64,000 bases of DNA from an uncultured Alphaproteobacteria bacterium (GCA_902826245.1 CADEEA010000007.1:4285-68284); one strand, 5' to 3'. Positions 37,221 to 57,732 are shown, counted from the first letter of the stretch. Numbers and translations: made by a program. The notes: generated by a model from the letters alone, not told the origin.

Positions 37221-38030
37221 TCACGGGGCGCGGTTCGCGGCGTCTTCTATTTGCACGCGGTAGCCTGAGCGCACGTGCGGGAAATAATCCCAAATCGCCA
37301 GATGCTGAGTGCAGCGATTGTCCCAGAACGCCACCGAATGCGGCTCCCAGCGGAAGCGCATGGCGAAATACGGATCTTCGCAATGCTGGTAGAGGAACTC
37401 CAGCAAGTGCCGGCTCTCTCTCGGAGAGACTTCATTGATGTGGCTGGTAAAGCCTCGATTGACAAAAATCACCTTGCGGCCAGTCACCGGGTGAACGCGG
37501 ATAACCGGATGCACAGATTTGGGATACTTGCCTTCCGGATCGAAACGGCCAAACGCAAGGATGCCGTCATGGGTGGCCGTCAAACCCTCGAGATAAGTCT
37601 TCATCCGGTCAGAGAGCGCATCATAGGCCGCGTACATGCTGGCGAAAATCGTGTCGCCGCCTTGTGGCGGCAGCGTGTGCAGATAGAGGATGCTGCCCAT
37701 TGGCGGCACTGCGGCGCACGACATATCCGTGTGCCATTCCTCGCCGGAGACATGCTTTGAGTTTTCGTCGGCGTGCAATTTGCGCACGTCGGGATAGTCC
37801 GGCATGCCTTTCAAAGCATGGCGCTGCAGCTTGCCGAAATATTGCCCCACCCGAGACAATGAACCGGGGTCGAGCCTCTGATCCCGGAAGAAGATCACTT
37901 GGTGATCGGCCAACGCTTGGTGCAGATCGTCGACAGCTGCATTGCTCAAAGGCTGGGTCAGATCGACACCGGAAATGACCGCCCCGATCCGCGGTGTGAT
38001 GGGGGAGGCCTTGATTGTGGCGTAGCTCAT
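37221..38030 (-). CDS. TauD/TfdA-family Fe(II)/2-oxoglutarate dioxygenase
   Basis: WHTD facial-triad motif, GGDTIFA and WDNRCTQH. Confidence 0.92.
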   Translation of the reverse strand: MSYATIKASPITPRIGAVISGVDLTQPLSNAAVDDLHQALADHQVIFFRDQRLDPGSLSRVGQYFGKLQRHALKGMPDYPDVRKLHADENSKHVSGEEWHTDMSCAAVPPMGSILYLHTLPPQGGDTIFASMYAAYDALSDRMKTYLEGLTATHDGILAFGRFDPEGKYPKSVHPVIRVHPVTGRKVIFVNRGFTSHINEVSPRESRHLLEFLYQHCEDPYFAMRFRWEPHSVAFWDNRCTQHLAIWDYFPHVRSGYRVQIEDAANRAP

Positions 38031-38083: not shown

Positions 38084-38100
38084 AGATTGTCTGGCAATCT
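38084..38100. promoter_or_regulatory. Operator copy 1 of the TTGTCWGACAA motif
   Basis: AGATTGTCTGGCAATCT palindrome between the divergent TauD and quinone oxidoreductase genes. Confidence 0.65.
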
Positions 38101-38127
38101 AGCGAAGCTGGGCACGTGGAGCAGGAA

Positions 38128-39135
38128 ATGGCCGAATCGATGAGGGCAATACGCTTGGACGAAACCGGGCCGCCGGCGAATTTGCGCTGCATCGAGACCG
38201 ATCGCCCGGTCTTGGCGCCAGATGGTGTGCTGATCCGCGTCGCTTATGCCGGTATCATTTATGCCGACGCCGAGGCGCGGCGCGGCACTTATTACCGGAA
38301 AACCACCCTGCCCTGGTTTCCAGGTCGCGAAGCAGCCGGGATTGTTGCTGCTATTGGATCGGCCGTGACCGGGTTCAAGCCGGGCGATCGGGTGGCGGCC
38401 CTGGTCATGGGCGGAGGCTGCTACGCCGAATACGTGCAGGCGCGCACCGCCCCGCACCAGCTTCCCAGCGGCAGCGAAGGCGCGCCCTCTGACATCATTG
38501 CGTTGCCTGATGGGGTGAGCTTCACGCGGGCCTTGGTCTATCTCGTGAACTTCCGACTGGCGCACATTTTGTTTCATGCCTGGGCACGCACGCCGCCTCA
38601 TGCGCGCATCATGGTGCATGGAGCGGCGGGCGGCATGGGCGCCATGCTCCTGCAACTGGCGGCGCAACAGGGCTGCGAAACCATCGCGATGGTGCGCAAC
38701 GAGATGGAAGCGGACTTCTGCCGCCGCCTCGGCGCCGCACACGCGATTGACGCAAGCCAACACGATTATGTCGCGGCGATCGAGGCATTGGGCGGAGGCG
38801 TGCACTTCAGCTTCAACGGCGTCGGCGGCGACACCATTAATCGCGATCCGCTTCTGCTCGCGCCTTTCGGTGAGCTGATCTGCTACGGTTATGTCGCTGG
38901 CAAACAGCCGATCGACTTCTTCGCCCTCGACCGCACGCTGAGCATAAAGTCGTTCAACGCCGACAATTTCCTGAAGACGCCCCATTTCGCTGCCGCTACT
39001 GCTGCCATGCGTGAACAATTTCACCGTGCCGCGCTTCTCGACGCGGGCCGGATATTTCCGCTGCCGCAAGCTGCGGAGGCTCACGAGGCCTTAGAATCTG
39101 GTGACTTTCTTGGGAAGATCGTGCTTCAACCGTGA
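38128..39135 (+). CDS. NADPH:quinone oxidoreductase-like MDR protein (no Zn ligands)
   Basis: PGREAAG and VHGAAGGMG motifs; GKIVL C-terminus. Confidence 0.88.
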   Translation: MAESMRAIRLDETGPPANLRCIETDRPVLAPDGVLIRVAYAGIIYADAEARRGTYYRKTTLPWFPGREAAGIVAAIGSAVTGFKPGDRVAALVMGGGCYAEYVQARTAPHQLPSGSEGAPSDIIALPDGVSFTRALVYLVNFRLAHILFHAWARTPPHARIMVHGAAGGMGAMLLQLAAQQGCETIAMVRNEMEADFCRRLGAAHAIDASQHDYVAAIEALGGGVHFSFNGVGGDTINRDPLLLAPFGELICYGYVAGKQPIDFFALDRTLSIKSFNADNFLKTPHFAAATAAMREQFHRAALLDAGRIFPLPQAAEAHEALESGDFLGKIVLQP

Positions 39136-39175
39136 CCGCCGCGGACTTGACGCCGCCGGCCGCGAGCGCGATGAT

Positions 39176-39186
39176 TTGTCTGACAA
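39176..39186. promoter_or_regulatory. Operator copy 2 (perfect TTGTCTGACAA)
   Basis: Lies 13 bp upstream of the small HTH-like gene at 39200. Confidence 0.7.
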
Positions 39187-39199
39187 TCTTAGGTGCCAC

Positions 39200-39478
39200 A
39201 TGTCCGATCTTCATGCCCGCTTGGCGCGGCAATCTCTGCGCCGACCACTCACACCCGACGAAGCGGGACTCGCTTTGGCGCTTGAGCAGATCTTTGCTGG
39301 CGGCCAGCACGACTTTGCAGGTGTCGCCAAAGCACTCGCTGACAGGGACGTGAAGCGCCCGTCCGGTGAAACAAGCGCTTGGACGCCGGAATCACTTGAA
39401 CAAGAGCTAAGACGCATCAACGCCGACTTGGATAAGGCCTACGAGACGCTCGACCTGATGCTAGCAGCAGGAGCGTGA
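39200..39478 (+). CDS. Recombinase-like helix-turn-helix domain small protein
   Basis: R.LT..E..LA.ALE.IF..G.HD...V...L...RPSG...WT pattern, recognised from Rieske-oxygenase-associated clusters; GTGA overlap with the SDR gene. Confidence 0.7.
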   Translation: MSDLHARLARQSLRRPLTPDEAGLALALEQIFAGGQHDFAGVAKALADRDVKRPSGETSAWTPESLEQELRRINADLDKAYETLDLMLAAGA

Positions 39479-40221
39479 TGCTCAAGGGGCGCACAATAGT
39501 TATCACCGGCGCCGCGCGCGGCGTAGGTTTGGCCGCCGCCAAAGCGTGCGCTCGCCATGGTGCGCGACTCGTCCTGGCTGACCTACTCATCGACCTCGGC
39601 AAGGCCGAAACCCAAAGCCTAGTCGAAGGCGGCGCCGAGGCCCGGTTCGTATCCATCGATTTAGACGCCCCCTCTTCGATTGAAGCGTTTGCGGCTGATA
39701 TCAAAGCGCACGAAGGTGGCGTCGACGGCTTAGTGAACAACGCCGCCATCGCTACCAATGTCGGCGGCGCGGGCTTTGAGGACATCGACCCAGCGCTCTG
39801 GGACAAGGTTATGCGCGTCAATGTACGCGGCACGTGGCTTGTCACACGCGCCCTTTCTCCGCTGTTCGGCAAGGACGCCCGCATCGTCAACATGGCGTCC
39901 GACACCGCGCTATGGGGACCGCAACGGCTCCTGGCCTATGTAGCGAGCAAAGGGGCGGTGATTTCCATGACCCGTTCACTGGCGCGCGAATTGGGGCCGC
40001 GCGGCATTGGCATTGTGGCGCTCGCGCCCGGGCTGATGCGCAACGAAGCCACCGAATACGTACCCGCCGAGCGCCACGCCCAAAACGAAAAGGGCCGCGC
40101 TGTACCCGGGCCGCAATTTCCCGAGGACATCGTCGACATAATCGCCTTTCTGCTGACGCCCGCAGCGCTGCCGCTAACCGGGCAAGTCATTCCCGTCGAC
40201 GCTGGCTTTGTGTTTGTTTAG
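39475..40221 (+). CDS. Short-chain dehydrogenase/reductase
   Basis: TGAARGVG, NNAA and YVASKG motifs. Confidence 0.93.
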   Translation: MMLKGRTIVITGAARGVGLAAAKACARHGARLVLADLLIDLGKAETQSLVEGGAEARFVSIDLDAPSSIEAFAADIKAHEGGVDGLVNNAAIATNVGGAGFEDIDPALWDKVMRVNVRGTWLVTRALSPLFGKDARIVNMASDTALWGPQRLLAYVASKGAVISMTRSLARELGPRGIGIVALAPGLMRNEATEYVPAERHAQNEKGRAVPGPQFPEDIVDIIAFLLTPAALPLTGQVIPVDAGFVFV

Positions 40222-40232
40222 CGAGGCGCTGC

Positions 40233-41420
40233 ATGAGCTTACGCTGCCCCATCCCATTTTCGGACCTAGCCCCCATCAATGGGGCCCCCGCACCAACGCG
40301 CTTCTTGCCGCCTGCTGCGTACAATTCGGAGGAATTTCACGCCTTTGAACTCGCTTCGGTGTGGCGCAAGGAATGGATAGCGGTGGGCCGCTGTGAGGAA
40401 ATCGCCGCGCCTGGAGATTATTTCACTGTCAGCATCGGCGAGGACCCGCTCATCGTCATCCGCGGCGACGACCAGGCGATCCACGCCATGTCAGCGGTTT
40501 GCCGCCACCGCGGCATGCTGGTCGCTGACGGCGCAGGCCATTGCAAGGGCCGGTTCGTATGCCCCTATCACAATTGGACCTATGACCGCCGCGGTAACCT
40601 CGTCGGCGCGCCTGGCATGCATGATGCACCAGGCTTTAGGCGTGAAGAAAATGGACTCCCGGCGGTTCGAACCGAGATCTGGGAAGGCGTCATCTTCGTC
40701 AACTTCGATGCGGCCGCGCCGCCCTTGGCGCCGCGGCTGGCGTCACTAGCGCCGATTGTGCGCGATTGGCGGCTGGCGGAGTTGCAAAACGAAAGCGTGG
40801 TCGATCCAACTGCGAAAATGCACTTCGATTACGATTGGAATTGGAAGATCTACGCCGAAGGGCAGAGTGAGTGCTACCATTGCGATAAGCTGCACGGCGA
40901 TACGCCCAGCATGCATGGCATCGATTTCGCCAGCATGAACATGCTAGTGAACGAACCTGACAACGGCGCCTTCGCATTCAGCCTGCGCACTAAGGCGATC
41001 GATCACACGCTAAACCACCTCGGCAAAGCGGTGCTTCCGCCGGTGCCGACTCTTTCGGAAGAACAGCGCTGGCTTTCCTATTCCATCGTCATCGCACCCA
41101 ACATCTTCATGCAATTGATGTCGGACTGCGTGATCCTGCTTTGTTGGTTCCCCAAGCGCGCGCAATCCATGCGGATGAAGCGGTTCCGCATGTACCCACA
41201 ATCAACACTGCACCTACCAGATTTTCTAGCACAGCGCGCGCCCGAAAGAGTGGCGGCACGTTATTTCGTGTCGCAGGACGATGTCGCTTTCGAGAGCGTG
41301 CAACAGGGCTTGCGCTCACATTTCGCGCCGCGCGGCCCTATCGCCTCGGGAGAGCCGATCTTGAGCGGATTCAATCGTTGGCTAATTGATCGTTACCGCG
41401 CCATGGAGCGGCAAGCCTAA
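40233..41420 (+). CDS. Rieske oxygenase alpha subunit (choline-monooxygenase-like group)
   Basis: CRHRG...CPYHNW Rieske motif; ECYHCDKLH and QDDVAFE mononuclear Fe ligands. Confidence 0.9.
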   Translation: MSLRCPIPFSDLAPINGAPAPTRFLPPAAYNSEEFHAFELASVWRKEWIAVGRCEEIAAPGDYFTVSIGEDPLIVIRGDDQAIHAMSAVCRHRGMLVADGAGHCKGRFVCPYHNWTYDRRGNLVGAPGMHDAPGFRREENGLPAVRTEIWEGVIFVNFDAAAPPLAPRLASLAPIVRDWRLAELQNESVVDPTAKMHFDYDWNWKIYAEGQSECYHCDKLHGDTPSMHGIDFASMNMLVNEPDNGAFAFSLRTKAIDHTLNHLGKAVLPPVPTLSEEQRWLSYSIVIAPNIFMQLMSDCVILLCWFPKRAQSMRMKRFRMYPQSTLHLPDFLAQRAPERVAARYFVSQDDVAFESVQQGLRSHFAPRGPIASGEPILSGFNRWLIDRYRAMERQA

Positions 41421-41421
41421 A

Positions 41422-43014
41422 TCAATTGGCCCGCGGCGCCCAAATCCAATCGTAGCGGTCGTTGAAGCGGCGGCGCGGCGGCGCCGAACGCCAATTGGCG
41501 GCGTCGTTGACATCGCCCGAGCCGTCATAGCGCGCTACATTAGGATAGGCGTAAAGCGGACGCGTGCGCACGACCGCACCGTTCTCGCTTTGCGTGGCGA
41601 TGATTCCATCCGGCTCAGCGCCCCCTTCGACCCATCGCACCAAGTGCGGCAAGAAGTCGAACGTATTGGGGGCGTTGCCACCTCGACAATGATACATGCC
41701 CGGCACCATGAACACCCGGAACCAGTTGCGCACGCTATCGAGACCGCCCTGACTTTCGGTGATATTCGCATAATAGTCGAGCGTGGCGAGCGGGGATACG
41801 CCGGGATCGGCCCAGCCATGATAGATAATGAGCTTGCCGCCTCGGCGCTCAAACCCGCTTAGGTCCGGCGTGCCCCGCGGGGGCACCGGATCAAACATCG
41901 CCGCCGACGCTTCGGTCGCCGCGACATCGGTATCGAAATTGAAATCGCGATAATTGTAATCGGGACGAGGTTCGCTGAACGCCAGGAAGCGCAGCCAAGC
42001 TTCGGCAATCGAGCGTCGCCCTGCTCCATCCCACTGCAGTTCCGCTCCAAAGGGTGAGCCACCAATCGAAAGCGCTTGGCCGCGGCTATTGCGCGCGCCG
42101 GCATAAAGACGCCGTGCGGCCTCAACTTGCGCCGGTGACAAACAGGAATCGCGGGCCTGCCCGCGGGGGCAGGCGATCGTGCGCGGGTCGAAACGGCAAT
42201 AGCGCGGATCATCGACAATGCCGTCGCGGACTCCATCCAGTTGATCGCATGCGCGCATTACTGCGGTGGCGATCGTTCGCAACGCCGCTGGCGAAAACAC
42301 GGGTTGATTGTCTGCCGTCAACAGACTTTGCGCGTCCCAATTGTTAGCCAGCGGGCCCTGGCGTCCGGGAAATGCGGGGTCCCCGGCAATAATGCCGTCA
42401 AAATCCTCAGGGAAGAACTGTGCTTCACTCAGCCCCTCGCGCCCGCCCGTGGAGCAGCCGCGGAAATAGGAATAGGCCGCCTGCGCGCCGTAATAGCGCT
42501 CAATGATCGCTTTTGCCGCTAGCGCGACGACGTGCGTAGAGCGCCGGCCGAAATCGCGGCGAAGGGCCGGCTCGCTCGCCCACAGCGCATCTCGCCAGAA
42601 ATGGCCGACATGTCCCATATTGTGCGCCGCCACCGCAAAGCCGCGCGCCTGCGCGTCAGCACAGCCTTCTATGGGAACGTTGCCGCACAGTCCCCCGCAT
42701 CCGGTCTGGAAATAGCGGCCGTTCCATCGCGTCGGCAGACGCAACTCGAACTGAATCTGCGGCTGCACGACGCCGATTACGGCGCAATAGCCGTCTGCGG
42801 CGCCGCGCGCTGGCGTTGTCCGAGCCGAGATGATCGCTGTCGGCGCATCGGCAAGCCCGGAAAAGCTCTGCTGCTCAAGCGCCGCGCACTCAATTGCGCC
42901 GGCAAGGTTCGCGTCTGTTGCGGCCCGCGTTTGCGCCATTGCAGGTGCAAGTGGCCAGCCAAAAGCCGCACTGAAAGCAGCACAGATCAAAGCTCTGCCG
43001 AGCGCCCGCAGCAT
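41422..43014 (-). CDS. Secreted tannase/feruloyl esterase-family hydrolase
   Basis: Signal peptide, GCSTGGREG, HGWAD and PGMYHC (CS-D-HC motif). Confidence 0.92.
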   Translation of the reverse strand: MLRALGRALICAAFSAAFGWPLAPAMAQTRAATDANLAGAIECAALEQQSFSGLADAPTAIISARTTPARGAADGYCAVIGVVQPQIQFELRLPTRWNGRYFQTGCGGLCGNVPIEGCADAQARGFAVAAHNMGHVGHFWRDALWASEPALRRDFGRRSTHVVALAAKAIIERYYGAQAAYSYFRGCSTGGREGLSEAQFFPEDFDGIIAGDPAFPGRQGPLANNWDAQSLLTADNQPVFSPAALRTIATAVMRACDQLDGVRDGIVDDPRYCRFDPRTIACPRGQARDSCLSPAQVEAARRLYAGARNSRGQALSIGGSPFGAELQWDGAGRRSIAEAWLRFLAFSEPRPDYNYRDFNFDTDVAATEASAAMFDPVPPRGTPDLSGFERRGGKLIIYHGWADPGVSPLATLDYYANITESQGGLDSVRNWFRVFMVPGMYHCRGGNAPNTFDFLPHLVRWVEGGAEPDGIIATQSENGAVVRTRPLYAYPNVARYDGSGDVNDAANWRSAPPRRRFNDRYDWIWAPRAN

Positions 43015-43027
43015 ACCTAACTCCTCG

Positions 43028-43059
43028 AAAAAATCCGGCGACCCAGCAGGGCCGCCGGA
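43028..43059 (-). terminator. Intrinsic terminator between the TonB receptor and esterase genes
   Basis: On the minus strand: TCCGGCGGCCC-TGCT-GGGTCGCCGGA followed by TTTTTT. Confidence 0.75.
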
Positions 43060-43067
43060 GCCTATTC

Positions 43068-45392
43068 CTAGAACTCGCTGGATAAGCGCACGCCTATGGT
43101 TCGTGGCCGTGGGGAGTAGACTCTCTGCCCATCTGGCGAGACATCAATCGCGTACTGGGCCTCTTCGTTTGTGACATTATTCACAAACAGACGCACGTCC
43201 CAATTCCCCTGCCGAAGGCCGCCAGCAATATCAACCACAACATAGGAATCCAATTCCACAAAATTGGGATCCGCTGAATTAAACGTCGTGTTCGATGAGC
43301 CACGATAGGACGCCGTCTCCTGCAAATAACCCTCAAGTGAACCGCTCAGATCAAACTCGTATTCCACGCGCTGCGATGCCGCCCATTCCGAGACGCGCGG
43401 AACGCGGTCGCCTTTGAGACCGGGCACGCCAGCCGACACCGGCAAATCCTCACTTAGGCTGGAGTCCGTGTATACCAAGCCGCCACTCAGCGTTAACCCT
43501 TCGACGGGATGCGTAGTGATCTGGAGTTCTGCGCCGTTCACATTGGTTTTGCCGGCGTTGATCGTGAAATCGAAGGCGCCGGACGCGTCAGTGGCGTTAA
43601 GCTGCTGGTCGGCCCAATCGATCCGATAGATCGAGACATCGATGAACGTGTTGCGGTTGAACAGATAAGATTTAGCCCCCAGTTCGTAAGACCACAAGCT
43701 GTCGGGGTCGTAGCTCGCCGGGATGGTGACCCCTGCGGAACCCGCCAGCAGTGTGGAATTATTCACTCCGCCCACGCGGAAACCCGAGGCGGCCCGTGCA
43801 TATAAGCTTAGATCGTCGCTCGGCTCCCAAAGCAGCGACCAATTATAGCTCACCTGCGATTCAGATCCGGTCGTCGTTCCTCGCGAATAAGGAACGGTGA
43901 CATCACCGAATGCGTAGCCGCATAAATTCGGCGGCCCGAAACCGCGATAGACATAGAAGGTTGAGCAGATCGGATCCTGAGCGAAGACGTCCTGCTGGGT
44001 AATGCCGGAATCTGTAATATCGGCGCTGTAGTAGCGCACGCCGATCGTGCCCGTGACCTGCTCGGTAAATTCGTAGTCTCCTTGCGCATAGAGCGCGTAT
44101 TGGTCGATATTGCGGAAATCCACCGTTGAAAACTCGACATTGGGTATCAAACCCGGCGTTGCGTGGCACGCAGCATAGGAAGTGCACGCCAACCTACCCG
44201 TCACGTCATCGGCAACCAGCGCATTGGTTTCCACACGAGTCTCGCTGTTCTCCTTGTAGTATCCTGCGACCAACTGGAAGGGTCCGTCGAAATCGGACGC
44301 GTAGCGAATTTCCGCCGTGCTGTTTTCGAAATCCTGGAAATTGCTCAGTGAGGTCAGGAAGGGCACGCCGAAGCTATTCGCGGTCGGCGTGGTGTCTTCG
44401 GGGCGATAATTACTCTGGGTGGTGTCAGAAATTGCTATCGTGAGTGTACCCGAGCCGAAGTCCGTCACACTTGTAAGTGAAAGGAGATCGTATTCGTCAG
44501 CGTAGGGCTCCACGGTTGGCGAAAGGCTGTTGTACGGGCCTGCTGCAAGGTGCCAATTTTGAGAACCGTCAACTGTGATTTCCTGATGGAGTGCGGCTGC
44601 CGTGAGGGTCCATGACTCCGTCGGGCGGAACGCCAACATAGCGCGAACGCCCTGTACACTCGCGTCGTTTACGTCATCGTACCGTGTAGTACCTGCTAGA
44701 CCCGCGTGTTGGTCAATGAAGCCACCGCCCTCCTCGACCCAGCCCACCGCACGAAAGGCAAGGCGATCACCAAGCGCGGCATTGATCATGCCATCGGCCA
44801 TGTAGAGTTCGTTGCCGCTGTCGATGGTGGCCCCGGACACGTTGATTCTGCCTTCGAAACCCTCGAAGTTCGGTTGTGCCGTGATGACGCGCAGGGTGCC
44901 GCTCATGGAGCCCGAACCGAAGAGAGTGCCCTGCGGCCCACGCAGTACTTCGACCCGCGCGAGATCGTGCAGCCGTATGCCAGGCTTGCCGTCGCCGCCG
45001 CCCTCGGTGCCCGATCCACCGGTCAAAGGTACTTCGTCGATGTACATCCCTACGGTAGAGCCAATGTCGGATTGAACGCCGCGGATAATGAATTGATTGA
45101 AGGCCGCACCGTAATTTTGAGCCGCGAACGTGGAGTCGATCTTGGTGATGTCCTGAAGCGAGGTGACAGCCAAATTTTCAAGTTGCTCGCCAGAAAATGA
45201 AGAAACCGCAAGCGGAATATCTACCAACGCCTGCTCACGCCGGGTCGCCGTAACGACAATTTCGTCGTCAGCGCCCGCCCCCGTTTGCGCCTGCGCCACG
45301 CCGACGCCACCAGAAAGCGCCAACATTCCTGCAGCTGCGCTGCCCGTAAGCACGCTTAGCCGCAACTGCTTCGACCATTTAGATTTCGTCAT
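43068..45392 (-). CDS. TonB-dependent receptor
   Basis: Signal peptide, DEIVVTATRR TonB box, RVEVLRGPQGTLFG plug motif, C-terminal Phe. Confidence 0.94.
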   Translation of the reverse strand: MTKSKWSKQLRLSVLTGSAAAGMLALSGGVGVAQAQTGAGADDEIVVTATRREQALVDIPLAVSSFSGEQLENLAVTSLQDITKIDSTFAAQNYGAAFNQFIIRGVQSDIGSTVGMYIDEVPLTGGSGTEGGGDGKPGIRLHDLARVEVLRGPQGTLFGSGSMSGTLRVITAQPNFEGFEGRINVSGATIDSGNELYMADGMINAALGDRLAFRAVGWVEEGGGFIDQHAGLAGTTRYDDVNDASVQGVRAMLAFRPTESWTLTAAALHQEITVDGSQNWHLAAGPYNSLSPTVEPYADEYDLLSLTSVTDFGSGTLTIAISDTTQSNYRPEDTTPTANSFGVPFLTSLSNFQDFENSTAEIRYASDFDGPFQLVAGYYKENSETRVETNALVADDVTGRLACTSYAACHATPGLIPNVEFSTVDFRNIDQYALYAQGDYEFTEQVTGTIGVRYYSADITDSGITQQDVFAQDPICSTFYVYRGFGPPNLCGYAFGDVTVPYSRGTTTGSESQVSYNWSLLWEPSDDLSLYARAASGFRVGGVNNSTLLAGSAGVTIPASYDPDSLWSYELGAKSYLFNRNTFIDVSIYRIDWADQQLNATDASGAFDFTINAGKTNVNGAELQITTHPVEGLTLSGGLVYTDSSLSEDLPVSAGVPGLKGDRVPRVSEWAASQRVEYEFDLSGSLEGYLQETASYRGSSNTTFNSADPNFVELDSYVVVDIAGGLRQGNWDVRLFVNNVTNEEAQYAIDVSPDGQRVYSPRPRTIGVRLSSEF

Positions 45393-45499
45393 TTGCGCTA
45401 ACTCCCCCGCAACTGAATTGCTTGGCTCTTTTTGCTTTGCGCGCCGACGCCGACGCCCAAACAAAGGATGCATAATGTACGGTGATGCAGTCAAGAAAA

Positions 45500-45510
45500 C
45501 TGTCTGACGA
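45500..45510. promoter_or_regulatory. Operator copy 3 (CTGTCTGACGA)
   Basis: Degenerate motif copy in the TonB receptor upstream region. Confidence 0.5.
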
Positions 45511-45695
45511 TCCTCTGACCGACCGGCCTCGCGCCTTACTCAACCGGGGCAGGCGGCACATGATATTTACAGCGGATTTAGATACACCCAAGCAAATTTT
45601 ATGCTGTCATTAAGTCACAATAAGGTGTTTTACACCCCACATTGGCCATTTTTCCCATAATCACACCTCAGTGCGAGTCTTTGGGTTTTCCAATA

Positions 45696-45706
45696 TCGTC
45701 TGACAA
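45696..45706. promoter_or_regulatory. Operator copy 4 (TCGTCTGACAA)
   Basis: One mismatch to the consensus; in the AT-rich region upstream of the TonB receptor. Confidence 0.55.
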
Positions 45707-45761
45707 AAATGCAACATGTACCTGAGATTTGTGCAGCCGCCGCTGCGGCGGCGTCAAAAGC

Positions 45762-46988: not shown

Positions 46989-46991
46989 GCG

Positions 46992-48260
46992 TCATGCACG
47001 CTTGGGACGCGGGGCCGCGTTATGCGGATAAGGACGCAATGTAAGCACAAGTGCGAGCGCGGCAAGGCAGATGGGCGCGCCCAACGCCAAGATCGCATGA
47101 TAGGAGCCGGTGGCGTCATACACGGCGCCGAACGTAACTGGGCCAAGCGCCATCCCCACCATAACGACGCCGAACATAACGCCGAAGATGCTGGCGAAAC
47201 GCCGCACTCCAAAATAGCGGCTAATCAAAAAGGCAAGCAGATCGACCTCAGCGCCGAGTGTGCCACCCAGCAATACAGCTGACGCGTAGAACGCCCACAA
47301 CGGCAAATCCGCTGCCAGCAAGGCAACGCCTGCCGCCGACAATAGAATGAAGATCGCCGCAATCCGGCGCGCGTCAAAACGATCGACAAGGGTCCCGATT
47401 AAAACGCGCCCTCCGAACGAAGCGAGGCCAAACAGAGATGCGATCGCCGCCGCAGCGCCGACCTCCACGCCCCGGCCCGTTAACATCGGTACAAGGTGCG
47501 GGATGAGCCCGTTCAGAACAAAGGACAGCGAAACAAAGATGGCGAGGATCACCCAGAACGCTGCGATCTTGGCCGCGGCGCCGACATCGACGCCCTCTTC
47601 CTGCTGCGCCGCCTCTCCTTGCCTCTTGCCGCCATCAACGGCCAAGCCAAGCTCGGCCGGCTTGTCGCGCAACACCAACGCGATCAGTGGCAGCGTCCCC
47701 AAGAGCATGATGCCGCCAAGGCCGAAATAGCCCGCTTCCCACCCATACTTCGCAACCAAGTGTTGGGTGAGTACTGGCACATAGGCAAATCCTAGTCCGG
47801 TTCCACTGCCGGCAATGCCGATGGCGAGGCCGCGCGATTTGTCGAACCACGACGCCAGCAGGCGCACATAGGCGATGCTGTTGGAGCCGATGGCGATCGT
47901 GCCCATGCCAACATAAAGCGCTATGAACACCCATAATTGCTTAGCGATCAGTGGCACGCCGATCAGGCACAAGCCAAAGATCGCAACAGAGGGCATGAGC
48001 ACAGCCTTTGGCCCGAAGCGATCGACCAGTCGGCCGGCGATGGTCATACACACCGCCGTGCACAACATCATCGCCGTGACGGCGCTGCTGATGGCGGTGA
48101 CGCTCCACCCGAATTCCTCATGCAACGGCCCGATGAAGATACCAATCGAGGCGAGACCGAACGCAGCGGGGCCCGTCGAAATACCGAAAAGGCACACCGC
48201 AACCATAGCCCAACCTGGATAGATCCCCAGGCGCGGCGCAGTTTCAACACTCTGTGTCAT
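46992..48260 (-). CDS. MFS transporter (OFA/monocarboxylate-like)
   Basis: GRLVDRFGPK and GTLVDRFDAR motif A; WFDKSRGLAIG. Confidence 0.9.
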   Translation of the reverse strand: MTQSVETAPRLGIYPGWAMVAVCLFGISTGPAAFGLASIGIFIGPLHEEFGWSVTAISSAVTAMMLCTAVCMTIAGRLVDRFGPKAVLMPSVAIFGLCLIGVPLIAKQLWVFIALYVGMGTIAIGSNSIAYVRLLASWFDKSRGLAIGIAGSGTGLGFAYVPVLTQHLVAKYGWEAGYFGLGGIMLLGTLPLIALVLRDKPAELGLAVDGGKRQGEAAQQEEGVDVGAAAKIAAFWVILAIFVSLSFVLNGLIPHLVPMLTGRGVEVGAAAAIASLFGLASFGGRVLIGTLVDRFDARRIAAIFILLSAAGVALLAADLPLWAFYASAVLLGGTLGAEVDLLAFLISRYFGVRRFASIFGVMFGVVMVGMALGPVTFGAVYDATGSYHAILALGAPICLAALALVLTLRPYPHNAAPRPKRA

Positions 48261-48381
48261 GCTTATCCGCCCCGCTCTGGACTCTCTTGGCTACCACAGC
48301 GCATTCTTCCGGTTTAAGCGAGCGCAGCACCAAGCGCGCCGGAGCCAAGGCGACTTGACCACTTCCCTAAGATAGTTTTGA

Positions 48382-48392
48382 TTGTCAGACAA
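48382..48392. promoter_or_regulatory. Operator copy 5 (perfect TTGTCAGACAA)
   Basis: Between the divergent MFS and Rieske genes; flanks extend the symmetry (TTGAT...ATCAA). Confidence 0.72.
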
Positions 48393-48431
48393 TATCAACA
48401 TCGCGGCTTTGGCCGTGCGGCCGGCAGAACC

Positions 48432-49478
48432 ATGGCGCAGGATCAAAAGGACCGCATCGACGAGCACTTGAGCAGGGGCCTTAAGGGTCTTTGGTATGTC
48501 GTTGCTAAATCTTCTGACTTGAAGACTAGCAAAGTGCTGGCGGTGCGGGCGCTCGGCCGCGAACTCGCGCTGTGGCGTGACAGCAGGGGCAAGATCGGTT
48601 GCGTAGAAGACTTCTGCCCGCACCGCGGCGCGAGATTGTCAGCTGGACGCGTAACGGACGGTCACATCGCCTGCAACTATCACGGCGTTCAGCTCGATGC
48701 GAATGGCGTGGTCGCCAAGGTGCCTGCCCTGCCGAATTGCATTCTGGAAGGCCGAAAAGCGATCGATGCCTTCAGCGTATTTGAGGCGCATGACGCGATC
48801 TTCGCCTACTTCCCGAGTGCGGATCGCCCGAGGGCTGATCCTCCAACCCTGCCATTCGAACTAACCGGCGGAGACTACTCATCCTTCCTCACAACATCGG
48901 TTTGGCGTTGCAATTATCGCTACGCACTCGAAAACGTCGCCGACCCGATGCACGGCCCCTATCTGCATGGCGATACGTTCACGCTCTCAGGCGGCGCGAA
49001 GCAGGACGAAGTGGAGCTGACAACCGTCGATGATGGGTTCACAGTCGCGCGGGTCGCCCAGCAAGGCGAGAATTTCGACTGGGCCCACGTCGTTACCGAG
49101 GCGGGCCTGTTCTACATGCGGGTCAACATCCCCTATCCACCTGCAGGCGGACCAGGGGGAATTATGCGCGTGGTCACGTGCGTTACCCCGATCGATGAAA
49201 ACTCGTGCCGAATCTTCTTCTGGCGAACCCGCAAAGTGAGCGGGCTCGCGCGCGAAGTATGGCGCTTCATGTTCCGAGCCGCGTTCGAGGAGCGCCATTG
49301 GTACGTCTTGGAGCAAGACCGGAATATGTTGGAGAGCTTGGCGCCCAACGCTCGCGACCGTGAAATGCTTTATCAGCACGATATAGGCGTAACTCGCCTG
49401 CGCCAAATGATGCGGCGTATGGCCAAAACGCAAATCGAAGCGGAGAGCCGCGACGCTCCGCGAACCGCCGCAGAATAG
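48432..49478 (+). CDS. Rieske oxygenase alpha subunit (VanA/TsaM-like, alpha-only type)
   Basis: CPHRG...CNYHG Rieske motif; ENVADPMHGPYLH and EQD ligands. Confidence 0.92.
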   Translation: MAQDQKDRIDEHLSRGLKGLWYVVAKSSDLKTSKVLAVRALGRELALWRDSRGKIGCVEDFCPHRGARLSAGRVTDGHIACNYHGVQLDANGVVAKVPALPNCILEGRKAIDAFSVFEAHDAIFAYFPSADRPRADPPTLPFELTGGDYSSFLTTSVWRCNYRYALENVADPMHGPYLHGDTFTLSGGAKQDEVELTTVDDGFTVARVAQQGENFDWAHVVTEAGLFYMRVNIPYPPAGGPGGIMRVVTCVTPIDENSCRIFFWRTRKVSGLAREVWRFMFRAAFEERHWYVLEQDRNMLESLAPNARDREMLYQHDIGVTRLRQMMRRMAKTQIEAESRDAPRTAAE

Positions 49479-49513
49479 CTCACGTCAGCTCATCGCAGAA
49501 CAGGACCTCGCAG

Positions 49514-50740
49514 ATGACCAACGCAGCCTTACCCGCGACGAAGGAGGCCGCGAATTGGCCGCTGGTGCTTTGCGCTATGTTGGGCGTGGCTGTCTGCTGT
49601 ACGCCAATCGCGATCTTGAGCCTCAGCGTGTTTTTTATCCCCCTGGGGGACGCGCTGGGATGGGGTCGCGGCGAGATCGCCGCAGCGCTTTCCATTCTGG
49701 CGCTTTCCATGGGGGTGGCGACCCCATTCGCGGGACGACTCATTGACAGGCTTGGCGTCAAGCCTGTCCTGGTTACATCCTTGTTGCTCTATGCGGGGTT
49801 CATGGCGGCTACGCCATATTTGATATCTCGCTTCGGGCTCTTGGGGTTCTACGGCGCCTATGTCGTCATCGGCATTGTCGGCGCCGGATCGAACACGGTC
49901 GCCTACACGCATGTACTCTCCGGCTGGTTCGACAAGGCGCGCGGCCTCGCGCTGGGCTTTGCGGTGAGCGGCATCGCCGTCGGCGCGGTGGTGGCGCCGG
50001 CGCTCGCGGCCTACTTGATTGAGGCCTATTCCTGGCAAGTCGGGTTTTACGGGCTGGCGGCGCTGCCGGTCCTTGTCGGCGCGCCAATTGCGTTGTTCGC
50101 CATCAGCGAGGCGCCGACGATCACCGCCGCGCATGAGAAGAAGGCTGAGGCGCCAGGCATGGATGCGGCCACCGCTTACAAAACCCGCGAATTCTTAGTG
50201 TTGTTCACGGTGTTCCTGATCGTGGCCACCTGCTTGCACGGCGTGCAAATTCACTTGCCCTCCTTGCTGGAGGATCGCGGCCTCACCACGCAAGCTGCGG
50301 TTGGCGCCTTCAGCCTACTGTTTGCGGTGACGGCGGTGACGCGCATAGCGGCGGGATTCTTGTTCGACCGCATGTTCGCGCCCATCATTGGCGGCGTCTT
50401 ATTTGTTCTTGGCGGCATCGGCATCGCCATGATGATGCCGACCTGGGCAGCGCTCTATTATTTGATCGCGGCGGCGCTGATCGGCATCGCAACTGGGGCT
50501 GAAACCGACCTTCTGGCCTATCTCACCGGGCGCTATTTTGGCTTGAAGGCGTTTGGCCAAGTTTATGGCGGCCTGTTCCTCGCCTTCATGATTGGCAGCG
50601 CCGTCGGCCCTTATGCGCTGGGCTTCGGCTTCGACGCCACCGGCAATTACGACCTCACGCTCACAGCGTGCGCAGTGGGCATGCTTATCGCGTGTGGTCT
50701 GCTTGTGACGCTGCCGCGTTATCCTAAGTTGGAGGCCTAG
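49514..50740 (+). CDS. MFS transporter (OFA/monocarboxylate-like), paralog of 46992-48260
   Basis: GRLIDRLGVK, WFDKARGLALG and AETDLLAYLTGRYFG. Confidence 0.9.
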   Translation: MTNAALPATKEAANWPLVLCAMLGVAVCCTPIAILSLSVFFIPLGDALGWGRGEIAAALSILALSMGVATPFAGRLIDRLGVKPVLVTSLLLYAGFMAATPYLISRFGLLGFYGAYVVIGIVGAGSNTVAYTHVLSGWFDKARGLALGFAVSGIAVGAVVAPALAAYLIEAYSWQVGFYGLAALPVLVGAPIALFAISEAPTITAAHEKKAEAPGMDAATAYKTREFLVLFTVFLIVATCLHGVQIHLPSLLEDRGLTTQAAVGAFSLLFAVTAVTRIAAGFLFDRMFAPIIGGVLFVLGGIGIAMMMPTWAALYYLIAAALIGIATGAETDLLAYLTGRYFGLKAFGQVYGGLFLAFMIGSAVGPYALGFGFDATGNYDLTLTACAVGMLIACGLLVTLPRYPKLEA

Positions 50741-51600
50741 CCGCCGCGGAACCAATCGGTGATTTCACTGCCGGTGGCGAACCAAACGTCCTTGTGCGCG
50801 GCGATATGAGCCAGCGCTTTATCGAGGTGTAAGGCTCGGAATGGGTGCCCGATGAGAAACGGGTGCAGGGCGATCGACATCAAGCGAGGCGTCCTCTCAC
50901 CTTCCGCGTATAATTGGTCAAACTGATCCACAATAATGTCATGGAAAGCCTTGCCCGTCCGCCCTTGGTGCAAGAACACCGGGATGTCGCCGACTTCAAG
51001 CGTGTAGGGCAAGGACAAGATCGAGCCCGCGCGCGTGCTCATCTCGTAAGGCAATTCGTCATTGGCCCAGTCCATTACATAGTCGACGCCTGCCTCTTTC
51101 AGGAGGTCCAGCGTGTTGTTGGTTTCGGTAAGCGCCGGCCCCAGCCAACCGCGCGGGCGCTTGCCACTCGCCTGCGCAATTCGATCAAGAACGCCAGCAA
51201 TAATTGGTTGTTCGGCCTCCGGCGGCATACCGGTGAACAGCATGGAATTGGTCGGCCCATGCGCAACCCATTCCCAGCCGAGCTTGTTGCCCTCTTCAAC
51301 TATGCGCGGGTACTCGTCGCAAACCTCGGAGTTAAGCGCGGCCGTGGCCTTCAGCCCGTGCTTGGCCAAAATCTCCATCACCCGCCACACACCCACCCGC
51401 GCGCCATAATCGCGCCAGGCATGGTTCAGGACGTCTGGGCTTAAGCCCGCCGTCATCGGCGTCATCGACATCGCTGGCTTGCCCCACTGGAAATGCTCGA
51501 TGTTAGGCGTGATCCACACGCCGACACGGGCGTCATTCGGCAATTTGCGAGTCGGCCGATCGACAATCGGCGAATAGTTGAATCGATTATGCCCGGTCAT
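50737..51600 (-). CDS. Polysaccharide deacetylase-family amidohydrolase (PuuE-like)
   Basis: WRDYGARVG, PRGWLGPAL, DWANDELPY and IALHPFLIG motifs. Start could also be 51615. Confidence 0.88.
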   Translation of the reverse strand: MTGHNRFNYSPIVDRPTRKLPNDARVGVWITPNIEHFQWGKPAMSMTPMTAGLSPDVLNHAWRDYGARVGVWRVMEILAKHGLKATAALNSEVCDEYPRIVEEGNKLGWEWVAHGPTNSMLFTGMPPEAEQPIIAGVLDRIAQASGKRPRGWLGPALTETNNTLDLLKEAGVDYVMDWANDELPYEMSTRAGSILSLPYTLEVGDIPVFLHQGRTGKAFHDIIVDQFDQLYAEGERTPRLMSIALHPFLIGHPFRALHLDKALAHIAAHKDVWFATGSEITDWFRGG

Positions 51601-51618
51601 GTGTGCGCTCTCCAAACC

Positions 51619-51855
51619 TTAAGCACTGGATTTTTTGATCGGCGGGAACACCTGCCCGCCTTCCCCATCAAACAGATTGATCACCCGATAGGGGCAGCTC
51701 CGCGCCGCGCGCAGCAACACATCATCCGAGGAGGCGCCGCTGTCGCCGAGCACAACCTTGCCATCCTCGCCAAGCGAGAACGTCTGCGGCGCCAGTTGCA
51801 CACACTTGCCGTGCGCCTGACACTTTTCGCGGTTGACCCGTACTTCGAACCCCAT
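51619..51855 (-). CDS. Ferredoxin, CxxHxxC...CP ([3Fe-4S]-type)
   Basis: CQAHGKC...SCPYRVI. Confidence 0.88.
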   Translation of the reverse strand: MGFEVRVNREKCQAHGKCVQLAPQTFSLGEDGKVVLGDSGASSDDVLLRAARSCPYRVINLFDGEGGQVFPPIKKSSA

Positions 51856-51864
51856 TGTGGCCTT

Positions 51865-52332
51865 TCAGATGATGAATTGCAGCAGCGGCAACTCGCGCTC
51901 GCTGTTGATCAAGAATACTGTCTTGCGGGCGATGCGAAAATCCTCGCCGGCGCGGCGCAACGCGTGCACGCTGCGGCCGATCCATAGCTGCTGCTCTGCG
52001 GTCCGCGCCACGCCAAGGATAAAGTTCGAGCCCACTTCGCACTTGTCCTCGCGATGGCTCAGAATCTCGATGTTTGACACCACGCGTCGCATGGCCCCGC
52101 GCGCGCCCTCGACAGCAAGCACCGAGCCGGATTTCAGGCGCGCGACCCTCTGTTCGATGCGCGGGTAGTCGTCATTGACGATAGATACTTTTCCTGGCTC
52201 CCCGCCGGCGCCGATCGGAACCTGGTAGACTCCGTCCTTGTCCCAAAGCGCGAGCCAGCCGGAATAATCCATCTCGTCCATCAACCGCGCCTCGCGGAAG
52301 AGGAACGCCTCGACTGCGGCCTGCTCGCTCAC
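51865..52332 (-). CDS. Aromatic ring-hydroxylating dioxygenase beta subunit
   Basis: FLFREARLMD...WLALW, RRVVSNIEI and FRIARKTVFLIN. Confidence 0.92.
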   Translation of the reverse strand: MSEQAAVEAFLFREARLMDEMDYSGWLALWDKDGVYQVPIGAGGEPGKVSIVNDDYPRIEQRVARLKSGSVLAVEGARGAMRRVVSNIEILSHREDKCEVGSNFILGVARTAEQQLWIGRSVHALRRAGEDFRIARKTVFLINSERELPLLQFII

Positions 52333-53576
52333 TCCCCGTCCTCCATGAGCGAAACATAATGCCGCCAGAAGCCACGCAAGTGCGTCTCATCGCGTGTCAT
52401 GCCGGAACGGCCTCCATCCGGCATTGAACGCTCGCGGTGCATGCCGCGGCCAATATAGAGCCGATCATCACCGCGCGCCTGCATGCCGACTTGGTTGCGC
52501 TCCATGATCTCGACATCGTCTGGCGACACAAAGCCAGCCGAGCCGAACATGAATTCGTGATCCGAGAGGCGCGCTTCGTTAATCTCGGCGGGCGCGCCCT
52601 TGAGCATGACCGGGAAATAATAGGAATGCGTTCGATCCACGCTCACCGGCTGCACAACGCGCAAATGTGTGATCACGTACATCAGGTTCGGGAATACATA
52701 GAGCAGCGGCGCCATTGTGCTCAACATGGCCGCCGCCTTGGCCTCGCCATGGCGCGCTTTCAGCTTGGCGATGTATTCGAGACGCGCCGCACTAGGTTGG
52801 CGTTTGGGCGGGTCCATGGGCGCGCCGCGATAATCTTCCACCATGTGCCCACCCGGCAGAGAACGGATCACATCAGGCACTTCGTCCGTCGCAAGCGCGG
52901 TAACGTCAAAACCGGTGCGCTTGGCGTAAAGGTCGAAAGCGACCCCGTGTATGAAGGGGCCATGATAGTCGCCCTCCATCGAGTTCTCCGGCATGTATTT
53001 CCAATTGCCGCGATAGACGACCTTCTGCTCGCCGGCGTCGACCGCAATTTCGCCCTCAGGCGAGAGATCCATGAACAGGTCGAGAAATTCTGTGACGCCG
53101 CCCAAATGCTCGGCCAAGCTCTGCCCTTCTGCAGCGACGCTGGCGAACACTAAGCCGCGATAGCTGTCCTGGCGCGGCAACGGTGTGAGGCCGAAGCGCT
53201 CCTTCTCGAGATCGTAATCATAGCCATCGTCAAAAGTCGGCGCGACAAGCTCACCGGTATTGGCATAGGTCCAGCCGTGGTAGGGACAGACAATGCTCTT
53301 CGCCACACCGCGCTCGGCGAAACACACCAAATTGGCGCGATGACGACAGCGATTGTAGAACACGCGTACCTTGTCATCGTTGCCGCGCACCATAATCACT
53401 GGCTGCAAGCCGATTTGTCTCCGCACGAAGTCGCCCGGCTTTGGCACTTCGCTTTCGTGGCCAACATATACCCACACCCTGTACCAGATGCGCTCCAGCT
53501 CGCGCTGAAACAGCCCCGGGTCGCGGTAGACGCTGCCGCGGACAACGGCGTCCTGGGCTAATGGAGCATCAGTCAT
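52329..53576 (-). CDS. Aromatic ring-hydroxylating dioxygenase alpha subunit
   Basis: NRCRHRA...CPYHGW, EGDYHGPFIH and DDVE motifs. Confidence 0.93.
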   Translation of the reverse strand: MTDAPLAQDAVVRGSVYRDPGLFQRELERIWYRVWVYVGHESEVPKPGDFVRRQIGLQPVIMVRGNDDKVRVFYNRCRHRANLVCFAERGVAKSIVCPYHGWTYANTGELVAPTFDDGYDYDLEKERFGLTPLPRQDSYRGLVFASVAAEGQSLAEHLGGVTEFLDLFMDLSPEGEIAVDAGEQKVVYRGNWKYMPENSMEGDYHGPFIHGVAFDLYAKRTGFDVTALATDEVPDVIRSLPGGHMVEDYRGAPMDPPKRQPSAARLEYIAKLKARHGEAKAAAMLSTMAPLLYVFPNLMYVITHLRVVQPVSVDRTHSYYFPVMLKGAPAEINEARLSDHEFMFGSAGFVSPDDVEIMERNQVGMQARGDDRLYIGRGMHRERSMPDGGRSGMTRDETHLRGFWRHYVSLMEDGE

Positions 53577-53579
53577 CGG

Positions 53580-54668
53580 TCAGTACGGCTCATAATCGCG
53601 AAGGTTGGGTATGACGTGTTCGCCGAAGAGGCGGATTGAACGCATCAACGCCTCCTCGGGCATGTCGCCGAAATTGAACTCGCCAAAAAACGTATTGAAA
53701 CTTCCCTCCTTGGCCCAAGCCCGCAACTTGTTCGCGACGGTGTCAGGCGCGCCGATCAACACGAGGTCCTTTTCGATCAGGTAATCAGGGTCGAGCATAT
53801 TGAGGATGATCTCGCCCGCGCCTGGATCGTTGCGGCTTTCGAAATATGCGGCGGTTTCCTTTTGCTTCTTGCGGATTTCCTCCCAGTCGTCGCCGGTCGA
53901 AAAGAACCCTTTATAAGCGTTGCCGGCGTCGGCCTTTGCGCGCGAGAGCGCGATCTCATCGGTCTCATCAACGTAGACTACCGTTGAGTAGGCGATGTTC
54001 GGAACACCAGCGTGGCCGTGCTGCTTCCAACCAGAAAGATAAGGCCCGTAGCGAGCATGAGCTTCTTTGCGCGGAAACAGCAGAAAATAGCCCGAGTGCA
54101 TGCCAAGCTCGGCACACAATTCTAGCGTCGGTGGATCACGGGTTTCCATCCACACGGGTGGACATGGTTTCTGGACTGGCCAAACGGATAGCTCTAGGTC
54201 CTTGACCTTGATCAGCGCGCCCTCCCAACTAGCCGGCGAACCTTGTTGGAACGCCGACTTCATGAAACGGGCGAACTCCTGAGTAATTTCGCGGCGTTCG
54301 GCAAAATTCGCGCCGAAATGTTTGAAATAGCTGTCCTGGATGCCTGGTACCAAGCCTACTTCTATGCGCCCGTTGGTGAGCTGATCGGTGAGCGCTATCT
54401 CCTCCAGCAAGCGGATCGGGTTATGCAAGGGCACAACATGGCCCATGGCCCCCACACGAATCCGCTTCGTCCGCGCCGCTGCCGCTACCGCGAACAGATT
54501 CGGCGACGACATCCAACTCTCGCCCGGCGTGAAATGGTGCTCGACGCTGAACGCATAGTCGAAGCCAACCTCATCGCAGAGCGCGATCTCACGCCACAAT
54601 TGCTCGTAGCGTTGGTGGGGCGTCATGCCGGCCTTGCCCCAGACATGGGCAAAATGGGCAAACCTCAT
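53580..54668 (-). CDS. Luciferase-like (LLM) flavin-dependent monooxygenase
   Basis: VEHHF, RIRVGAM, PIRLLEEIALTDQLTNGRIEVG; GGAGG SD before ATG 54668. Confidence 0.92.
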   Translation of the reverse strand: MRFAHFAHVWGKAGMTPHQRYEQLWREIALCDEVGFDYAFSVEHHFTPGESWMSSPNLFAVAAAARTKRIRVGAMGHVVPLHNPIRLLEEIALTDQLTNGRIEVGLVPGIQDSYFKHFGANFAERREITQEFARFMKSAFQQGSPASWEGALIKVKDLELSVWPVQKPCPPVWMETRDPPTLELCAELGMHSGYFLLFPRKEAHARYGPYLSGWKQHGHAGVPNIAYSTVVYVDETDEIALSRAKADAGNAYKGFFSTGDDWEEIRKKQKETAAYFESRNDPGAGEIILNMLDPDYLIEKDLVLIGAPDTVANKLRAWAKEGSFNTFFGEFNFGDMPEEALMRSIRLFGEHVIPNLRDYEPY

Positions 54669-54729
54669 CGCCTCCTCCAGACATGGCTGATGCGCCAAAC
54701 ACTAATCGCTCGAACACGAAACACAAGGA

Positions 54730-54740
54730 TTGTCTGACAT
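54730..54740. promoter_or_regulatory. Operator copy 6 (TTGTCTGACAT)
   Basis: In the 84-bp gap upstream of the LLM-alpha-beta-ferredoxin-deacetylase genes. Confidence 0.65.
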
Positions 54741-54752
54741 TTGCGGGTGAGA

Positions 54753-57703: not shown

Positions 57704-57732
57704 TTTACATTATGTACGGTTGACCGTACAAT
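57704..57732 (+). promoter_or_regulatory. Sigma70-like promoter with an embedded 18-bp palindromic operator
   Basis: TTTACA (57704-09), a 17-nt spacer, then TACAAT (57727-32). TGTACGGT-TG-ACCGTACA at 57713-57730. Confidence 0.75.

Follow-up and report, generated by a model that had tools for sequence, protein, structure and literature searches.

Which protein, if any, reads the short palindrome that recurs ahead of the scattered transcription units in a gene island of an uncultured Alphaproteobacteria bacterium (GCA_902826245.1, CADEEA010000007.1:4285-68284)? We analysed a 64,000-nucleotide stretch, here called the window, which corresponds to C7:4285-68284 of a 3.2-Mb draft genome in 104 contigs; positions without a contig prefix are in window numbering. 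The original prediction was that six copies of TTGTCWGACAA between 38084 and 54740 place the oxygenase and uptake genes under one FadR-subfamily repressor encoded elsewhere, or else involve a small helix-turn-helix (HTH) protein next to a perfect copy. Our analysis indicates that the copies belong to a longer repeat, ATTGTCWGACAAT, and that these repeats are very probably operators of a dimeric VanR-group FCD regulator encoded at C7:70687-71463, which would join about a dozen transcription units into one regulon.

All six copies are found where they had been placed, each in intergenic DNA and 19-130 bp upstream of a likely start codon, apart from the second site of the TonB-receptor gene at ~310 bp. 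Alignment of the copies extends the motif to a 13-bp palindrome of 6-1-6 form (ATTGTC-W-GACAAT) with weak GA/TC flanks; the 11-mer had thus captured the positions but missed the true unit. A genome-wide search adds two copies beyond the window end, at C7:70580 and C7:72982, which the original prediction did not mention. The eight sites are as follows, with scores from a palindromic position weight matrix (PWM) that was built from them and scanned across all 104 contigs.

38085-38099: operator copy 1, GATTGTCTGGCAATC, 20.9 bits; 11-mer 38087-38097, TTGTCTGGCAA, one mismatch, within AGATTGTCTGGCAATCT; in the divergent gap between a TauD-like dioxygenase gene (37221-38030, minus strand) and a zinc alcohol dehydrogenase (Zn-ADH) gene (38128-39135, plus strand).
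39174-39188: operator copy 2, ATTTGTCTGACAATC, 23.4 bits; 11-mer 39176-39186, TTGTCTGACAA, perfect; in the 64-bp gap from the ADH stop to the HTH_62 start (ATG 39200), ahead of HTH_62-SDR-Rieske alpha.
45498-45512: operator copy 3, the weakest, AACTGTCTGACGATC, 18.0 bits; 11-mer 45500-45510, CTGTCTGACGA, two mismatches; intergenic, ~110 bp upstream of the TonB-dependent receptor start (ATG 45392, minus strand).
45694-45708: operator copy 4, TATCGTCTGACAAAA, 19.1 bits; 11-mer 45696-45706, TCGTCTGACAA, one mismatch; intergenic, ~310 bp upstream of the same receptor start and immediately downstream of an MFS stop (45762).
48380-48394: operator copy 5, GATTGTCAGACAATA, 24.7 bits, the top match in the genome; 11-mer 48382-48392, TTGTCAGACAA, perfect; in the divergent gap between MFS-MFS (46992-48260, minus strand) and a VanA-like Rieske oxygenase plus MFS (ATG 48432, plus strand).
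54728-54742: operator copy 6, GATTGTCTGACATTT, 23.0 bits; 11-mer 54730-54740, TTGTCTGACAT, one mismatch; in the intergenic 84-bp gap between an alpha/beta-hydrolase stop (54753) and the start of a luciferase-like monooxygenase (LLM) gene (ATG 54668, minus strand; start codon and Shine-Dalgarno sequence examined).
C7:70578-70592: operator in the DHDPS/regulator gap (11-mer 70580-70590), ~100 bp upstream of the regulator start.
Near C7:72982: operator in the gap between an aldehyde dehydrogenase gene and an SDR gene.

The repeats are far more numerous than composition would produce. Within the window, 0.46 matches to the 11-mer with at most one mismatch are expected and five are observed, a number that no dinucleotide-preserving shuffle among 100 attains. 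Island scores are bimodal, in that eight sites reach at least 17.9 bits and all fall in its 4.2% of non-coding DNA, while every other position scores at most 9.8 bits and is coding; the core part of the contig has no copy of at least 12 bits in the PWM scan, in line with the earlier impression that the motif is absent there. Seven of the 19 genomic matches with at most one mismatch are on C7. The island sites, which span 31 kb of this contig, make up eight of the ten best PWM matches in the genome and eight of the 12 with at least 17 bits, so that the motif is not equally frequent in intergenic DNA elsewhere, an outcome that would have spoken against the prediction.

The second-best match in the genome (C47:3281-3295, TATTGTCAGACAATA) lies on another contig, 63 bp upstream of the gene for a 451-aa Rieske alpha subunit (C47:1863-3218, minus strand). 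Orthologues of this subunit with 67-69% identity are found within two homologous clusters of other genomes (L015 and L017; homologous loci carry the prefix L), and we therefore take the C47 gene to be a detached member of the regulon. Isolated strong sites off the island also occur at C37:5189 (ahead of an efflux outer-membrane gene), at C61:17337 (ahead of a membrane-protein operon) and twice on C19; no regulon orthologue is close by any of these C37, C61 and C19 sites.

The original prediction held that no FCD regulator is encoded in the window and proposed a search for a FadR-type gene beyond 64000. Both points are borne out: the genome has four FCD genes, none of them within the window, and one lies 2.4 kb past the window end with a motif copy in its own promoter gap. 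The other three are paralogues on C3, C31 and C51.

C7:70687-71463 (window 66403-67179), plus strand: GntR+FCD regulator, from Pfam.

Together with the two further copies this gene occupies a region 2.3-4.7 kb past the window end. Its likely start is the GTG at 70687, with the Shine-Dalgarno sequence GAGGGG, and it is divergent from the DHDPS operon. The N-terminal GntR winged HTH (wHTH; PF00392, residues 22-80) scores 53.6 bits against a cut-off of 27, and the C-terminal FCD domain (PF07729, residues 94-216), which is also recovered by the whole-genome family search, 67.9 bits against 24.3. In an AlphaFold2 model (pLDDT 83), a wHTH of three helices and a two-strand wing is followed by a C-terminal domain of six helices (88-112, 115-133, 137-152, 158-178, 184-200 and 204-227). 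The C-terminal domain has six helices in the VanR group and seven in the FadR group (PMC12042122). The top Foldseek matches of the model are Atu1419 (VanR), AlkR (TM 0.70/0.85, rmsd 2.3), PmiR and McbR, and FadR trails with an E-value of ~1e-4 and a TM of 0.44. By its modelled fold the regulator is a member of the VanR group of the FCD subfamily and not of the FadR group proper; the subfamily named in the original prediction was right, the group was not, and the repression it proposed is a matter of inference (below).

An operator of this sequence has been footprinted for another protein of the VanR group. The sequence ATTGTCAGACAAT is the sole DNase I-protected site of AlkR, the VanR-group FCD repressor of alkB2 in Pseudomonas aeruginosa SJTD-1; AlkR binding requires the symmetry of the palindrome, its operator overlaps the AlkR promoter, and the repressor is released by a pathway metabolite, C16/C18-acyl-CoA (PMC12042122). 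This operator sequence is identical to that of the island, and both proteins combine a wHTH with a six-helix FCD domain. When the DNA-binding domain alone is compared with the PDB, AlkR is the second-best match. The functionally tested AlkR contacts R45, R49, R67 and G68 correspond to R57, R61, R79 and G80 of the island regulator and are (near-)invariant across the family alignment; they comprise arginines of alpha-3 and the Arg-Gly of the wing. The two proteins are nevertheless not orthologues (~24% identity over the fold alignment, phmmer E 7e-10), and whereas AlkR acts on alkB2 with an acyl-CoA effector, the genes downstream of the island sites encode Rieske, LigAB, amidase and transporter proteins; no alkB-type gene is seen among the annotated genes of the island. 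The island regulator is also set apart by an Asn in place of AlkR R66 and by a long Lys/Ala-rich C-terminal tail (...PKAKRSGKTAAGAKRSAKKSAA; residues 231-258, C7:71377-71460) for which the model shows disorder (pLDDT <50) and which differs from homologue to homologue. Such a tail is not usual in FCD regulators and could increase affinity for DNA in a non-specific way.

Other characterized regulators are informative in part. LhgR, a GntR-family L-2-hydroxyglutarate sensor of Pseudomonas putida, has DNase I footprints that contain TTGTCTGAC*AA and TA*GTCTGACAA, the former in the promoter of LhgR itself; it is autoregulated, and its effector frees it from DNA (bioRxiv 10.1101/2020.07.07.187567). 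It differs from the island regulator in having one small target operon (lhgO) and another effector and in its distant sequence relation, and its operator is quoted here from the text of that paper. The best Foldseek match by E-value is Atu1419 of Agrobacterium fabrum (PDB 6ZA3). This VanR-group FCD repressor controls a cluster for the catabolism of aromatics (hydroxycinnamate) and was crystallized on palindromic DNA. It is 27% identical to the island regulator. Its operator is said to differ in sequence and the protein to form a tetramer. Some homologues with 56-59% identity carry a KEGG-style JGI label as TgnR, the trigonelline-degradation GntR regulator, which is an automatic annotation only; the island does have a Rieske oxygenase, a flavin-type monooxygenase, amidases and a succinate-semialdehyde-type aldehyde dehydrogenase. 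A literature search gave no paper that names TgnR, no equivalog model matched, and any orthology to the Acinetobacter baylyi gene is hypothetical. The eight own sites and 55 foreign ones fit the FCD-type form Ny-GT-Nx-AC-Ny, with odd spacing and one half-site per monomer. An autoregulated GntR/FCD repressor with a 6-1-6 operator, local to a catabolic cluster, is a textbook mechanism.

Conservation across genomes provides a further view of the pairing. None of 60 same-genus and same-order genomes has a regulator orthologue (E up to 1e-20), which marks the island as a strain-specific acquisition and precludes footprinting by comparison inside the genus. A large protein collection contains regulator homologues with 58-90% identity, and their contigs (L002-L010) are syntenic with the island. 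A search of genome contigs with the single regulator sequence yielded no locus; an alignment-based profile query, with one genome per species, yielded 17 more, all in metagenome-assembled genomes (MAGs) from the Sphingomonadales, other Alphaproteobacteria, the Steroidobacteraceae and one bin labelled Chloroflexia. Among the metagenome and MAG contigs that bear syntenic clusters, regulator identity is 51-90%.

In these loci the motif is retained at orthologous promoter gaps in at least 20 homologous clusters, as the prediction required of a real operator. The set L002-L010 has it in the gaps DHDPS/regulator, which is the regulator's own promoter gap, Aldh1/SDR2 or Aldh2, MFS/Aldh2, TauD/SDR-ADH and from ADH to VanA-like Rieske. 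At a threshold of 16 bits, the 17 MAG loci have 41 matches in 267 kb and the reversed-sequence control has none, and in ten of the 17 a site lies 90-215 bp upstream of the regulator. Mapping of the island proteins onto all loci with tblastn shows that sites recur ahead of the same units, such as the HTH_62-VanA-SDR operon, and a logo from 55 non-redundant foreign sites gives ATTGTCWGACAAT again. Individual copies have counterparts: copy 1 in the orthologous TauD/SDR gap of L008 and L009, copy 2 upstream of the HTH_62 orthologues of L015, L016, L026 and L027, and copy 5 in the MFS/Aldh2 and VanA gaps of L006, L008, L009, L014-L017 and L026, and the TonB-receptor gene beside the regulator in L010 likewise has two sites. 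A seven-genome alignment of the regulator promoter gap has a mean column identity of 40% and 12 invariant columns, of which 11 fall within the operator and one, an A, belongs to a conserved TGTCAAG beside it. On the other strand TGTCAAG reads CTTGACA and, judged by sequence, may be the -35 element of the DHDPS operon.

Two loci are unusual with respect to the regulator. L008 encodes a second FCD paralogue (18277-18999) with 61% identity to the regulator, between isochorismatase and TauD genes, which from its sequence may be a duplicated regulator of the same or shifted specificity. L014, on a 276-kb contig of the MAG labelled Chloroflexia, is a syntenic cluster that has four sites and a regulator with 62% identity; either the bin or its label is wrong, or the cluster was transferred between phyla.

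Several observations weigh against the explanation proposed here. The homologous loci were retrieved through the regulator, so they show the motif where the regulator is and test the converse weakly; on that converse, relatives for which matches are listed have at most one match with at most one mismatch, compared with six in this genome. Three of the 17 MAG loci have no site of at least 16 bits. In this genome no motif copy is present at the tannase gene or at the HutC/amidase/ThDP (thiamine diphosphate) module. With up to two mismatches, the 13-mer occurs 24 times here and ~13 times in the genus, against ~2 in the reversed control, a count that does not discriminate, whereas matches with at most one mismatch do set this genome apart from those with listed matches. 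Other GntR regulators with similar operators probably exist; three more FCD genes are present in this genome besides that of the island regulator. The promoters discussed below are consensus matches only, and those of Alphaproteobacteria may differ. As a separate observation, the other genomes of the genus are without the regulator, and almost all of them have ATTGTCWGACAAT with up to two mismatches at 5-10 times the frequency of its reversed control, a hint that GntR regulators with operators of this kind are common there.

The excess over the reversed control, the four FCD genes of this genome and the fact that unrelated proteins, AlkR and LhgR, share this class of motif would suit an alternative in which one of the paralogues on C3, C31 and C51 occupies the sites, or in which GntR regulators cross-talk at them. 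We consider this improbable, since the sites, the island and the C7 regulator travel together across families and classes, the regulator is missing from the 60 relatives, and the strongest sites cluster by the C7 regulator gene and not by the paralogues. The reading with the least to recommend it is that the copies have no regulatory role, having arisen by chance or from composition or been left behind by a repeated mobile element. The motif is AT-rich in a GC-rich genome and is thus likelier to arise in the AT-richer intergenic DNA, yet neither the shuffles nor the reversed control (none against 41) reproduces its abundance, and it is kept at orthologous positions whose surroundings have diverged to the 40% column identity noted above. 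Flanks beyond ~15 bp are unrelated between copies, which means that they are not parts of a repeat element. The conservation data effectively refute both versions.

Two proteins encoded in the window itself are the other candidates, and their features are listed here.

39200-39478, plus strand: small HTH_62 protein (Pfam PF20552, 2e-11), with a perfect motif copy 19 bp upstream of its start.
56978-57694, minus strand: HutC-type GntR (Pfam GntR 5e-21 plus a weak UTRA; the best NCBIfam model is HutC, below cut-off).
57711-57728, no strand: perfect 18-bp palindrome with even spacing, TGTACGGTTGACCGTACA, in the 67 bp that separate the HutC-type GntR gene from that of the ThDP enzyme.

The HutC-type protein, which the original prediction did not mention, is an island-encoded member of the GntR family, and in L009 and L012 the HutC/ThDP gap bears an FCD-type site instead of or besides the palindrome. 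Control of the island by this protein is still very unlikely. Here its own gap has no FCD-motif match of at least 7 bits and has instead the different, even-spaced palindrome, which from its sequence is probably a separate operator of the HutC-type regulator. An even-spaced palindrome is reportedly what the HutC subfamily consensus (after Rigali 2002) leads one to expect. The motif, by contrast, has a single central base and is exactly a known FCD/VanR operator, and many loci with sites have no HutC orthologue within 10 kb (L010, L014-L017, L019, L021, L026 and L027). The original prediction had also entertained the small HTH protein. In its favour, HTH_62 has an HTH domain and a strong site just upstream, and it accompanies the regulon in many genomes. 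However, L002-L009 and L011-L014 have sites with no HTH_62 gene within 10 kb, and where the gene occurs it is always the first of an HTH_62-Rieske-SDR operon, pointing to an oxygenase-associated role; the identity of the motif with a footprinted FCD operator and its conserved autoregulatory position before the FCD gene favour the FCD protein. It therefore seems most doubtful that HTH_62 is the motif-binding regulator or an obligatory co-regulator, and its place, downstream of the operator at the head of a conserved operon, is that of a regulon member.

With the VanR-group regulator as the preferred reader of the motif, the position of the operators relative to promoter-like sequences bears on how it would act. 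Six sigma70-like consensus matches occur in 37.9-55 kb, and three of them overlap or abut operators. A 10/12 sigma70-like promoter at 38097-38069 (minus strand) reads towards TauD, and copy 1 overlaps its -35 hexamer; copy 2 abuts the -10 of a promoter-like site (39147-39175) ahead of HTH_62, and copy 5 lies inside a minus-strand promoter-like site (48398-48369, in the -35/spacer part) that reads towards the MFS pair. From this arrangement and the behaviour of characterized FCD regulators, we infer repression by promoter occlusion as the most likely mechanism. The apo-regulator would bind the operators and occlude the promoters, and a substrate or intermediate of the pathway would bind the FCD domain and lift repression. 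The regulator would also repress its own gene by negative autoregulation.

Eight operators in the 35-kb island, together with the one on C47, would put about a dozen units under this regulator. The proposed units are TauD; ADH; HTH_62-SDR-Rieske; the TonB-dependent receptor; MFS-MFS; the VanA-like Rieske plus MFS; LLM-Rieske alpha/beta-ferredoxin-deacetylase, which copy 6 heads; DHDPS-OCD-CMD-LigAB-DUF2848-NMT1-cupin-amidase; the regulator; Aldh1; and SDR-Aldh-SDR. The proposal of a single regulator for the oxygenase and uptake genes is thus supported but was drawn too narrowly, as the LigAB/DHDPS operon and the aldehyde-dehydrogenase units are included as well.

These units belong to an array of genes. 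According to Pfam scans, the island has a lower GC content and begins downstream of the core genes pdxA and rRNA adenine dimethylase (RrnaAD, ksgA/rsmA-type), with a TauD-like dioxygenase, a Zn-ADH, the small HTH_62 protein, an SDR and a Rieske alpha subunit. Then come a tannase-family esterase, the TonB-dependent receptor and two MFS transporters; the VanA-like Rieske oxygenase, another MFS and a polysaccharide-deacetylase-family protein; and a ferredoxin, Rieske beta and alpha subunits, the LLM, an alpha/beta hydrolase and an amidase. The last part in the window comprises the HutC-type GntR, the ThDP enzyme, a second amidase, a cupin, an NMT1-fold protein, DUF2848 and LigB/LigA. Past the window end the array continues with CMD, OCD and DHDPS-like genes (all minus strand), the divergent plus-strand regulator, an aldehyde dehydrogenase (minus strand) and a divergent SDR-aldehyde dehydrogenase-SDR set. 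The largest unit crosses this border.

59474-64000, minus strand: distal part of the nine-gene unit DHDPS-OCD-CMD-LigA-LigB-DUF2848-NMT1-cupin-amidase (Pfam); the operator and predicted promoter that would serve it are past the window end, at C7:70578-70592.

The order of this nine-gene unit and the operator at the DHDPS/regulator gap recur in L002-L012, L014-L017, L019 and L026. HTH_62 adjoins orthologues of the VanA-like Rieske and SDR in L010, L015, L016, L026 and L027, always downstream of a site. The HTH_62-VanA-SDR operon is contiguous in the last four of these loci, whereas in this genome it is split into two parts 9 kb apart (39200-41420 and 48432-49478), each with an operator, which suggests that HTH_62, the VanA-like Rieske and the SDR form a functional three-part oxygenase set that has been rearranged here. 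A strong intrinsic-terminator-like hairpin is present at 43034-43059 after the TonB-receptor gene, and the downstream tannase-family gene (41422-43014) has no operator copy; this gene may be outside the regulon or dependent on read-through.

What the regulon does can be approached from its gene content, which suggests an aromatic or heterocyclic substrate with amide or amine nitrogen. We see an even chance that the operator marks a complete, widespread and so far uncharacterized catabolic pathway of ~30 genes for an N-containing aromatic or heterocycle, with all of the following as its parts: LigAB-type ring cleavage, a divergent DHDPS-like enzyme, an OCD/mu-crystallin-like enzyme, CMD, DUF2848, a signal-less NMT1/SBP-fold protein, a cupin, amidases, the HTH_62-Rieske-SDR set, a TonB-dependent receptor and MFS transporters. 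Ten key island proteins were compared with NCBIfam, and all of them stay below the curated equivalog cut-offs. Searches of PDB sequences with the VanA-like Rieske, DHDPS-like and LigB proteins return remote relatives only, for which reason we gave up naming the substrate. Trigonelline-like N-heterocycles, amino-catechols, DOPA-like compounds that cyclize after extradiol cleavage, and catechol amides were considered as substrates and found no support, and literature searches on TgnR/trigonelline, DUF2848 and 7XP0 found nothing.

The motif supplies an annotation-independent list of which scattered units belong together, including the Rieske oxygenase on C47, and the same mapping of the regulon applies to the homologous clusters of the Sphingomonadales, other Alphaproteobacteria and the Steroidobacteraceae. 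Screening for the effector is a direct handle on the substrate of the pathway, and a biosensor could be built on the regulator as its scaffold, a use to which LhgR is already put. If the operator does mark a catabolic pathway, the effector of the regulator would name its substrate, and the regulon map would give the full list of its genes.

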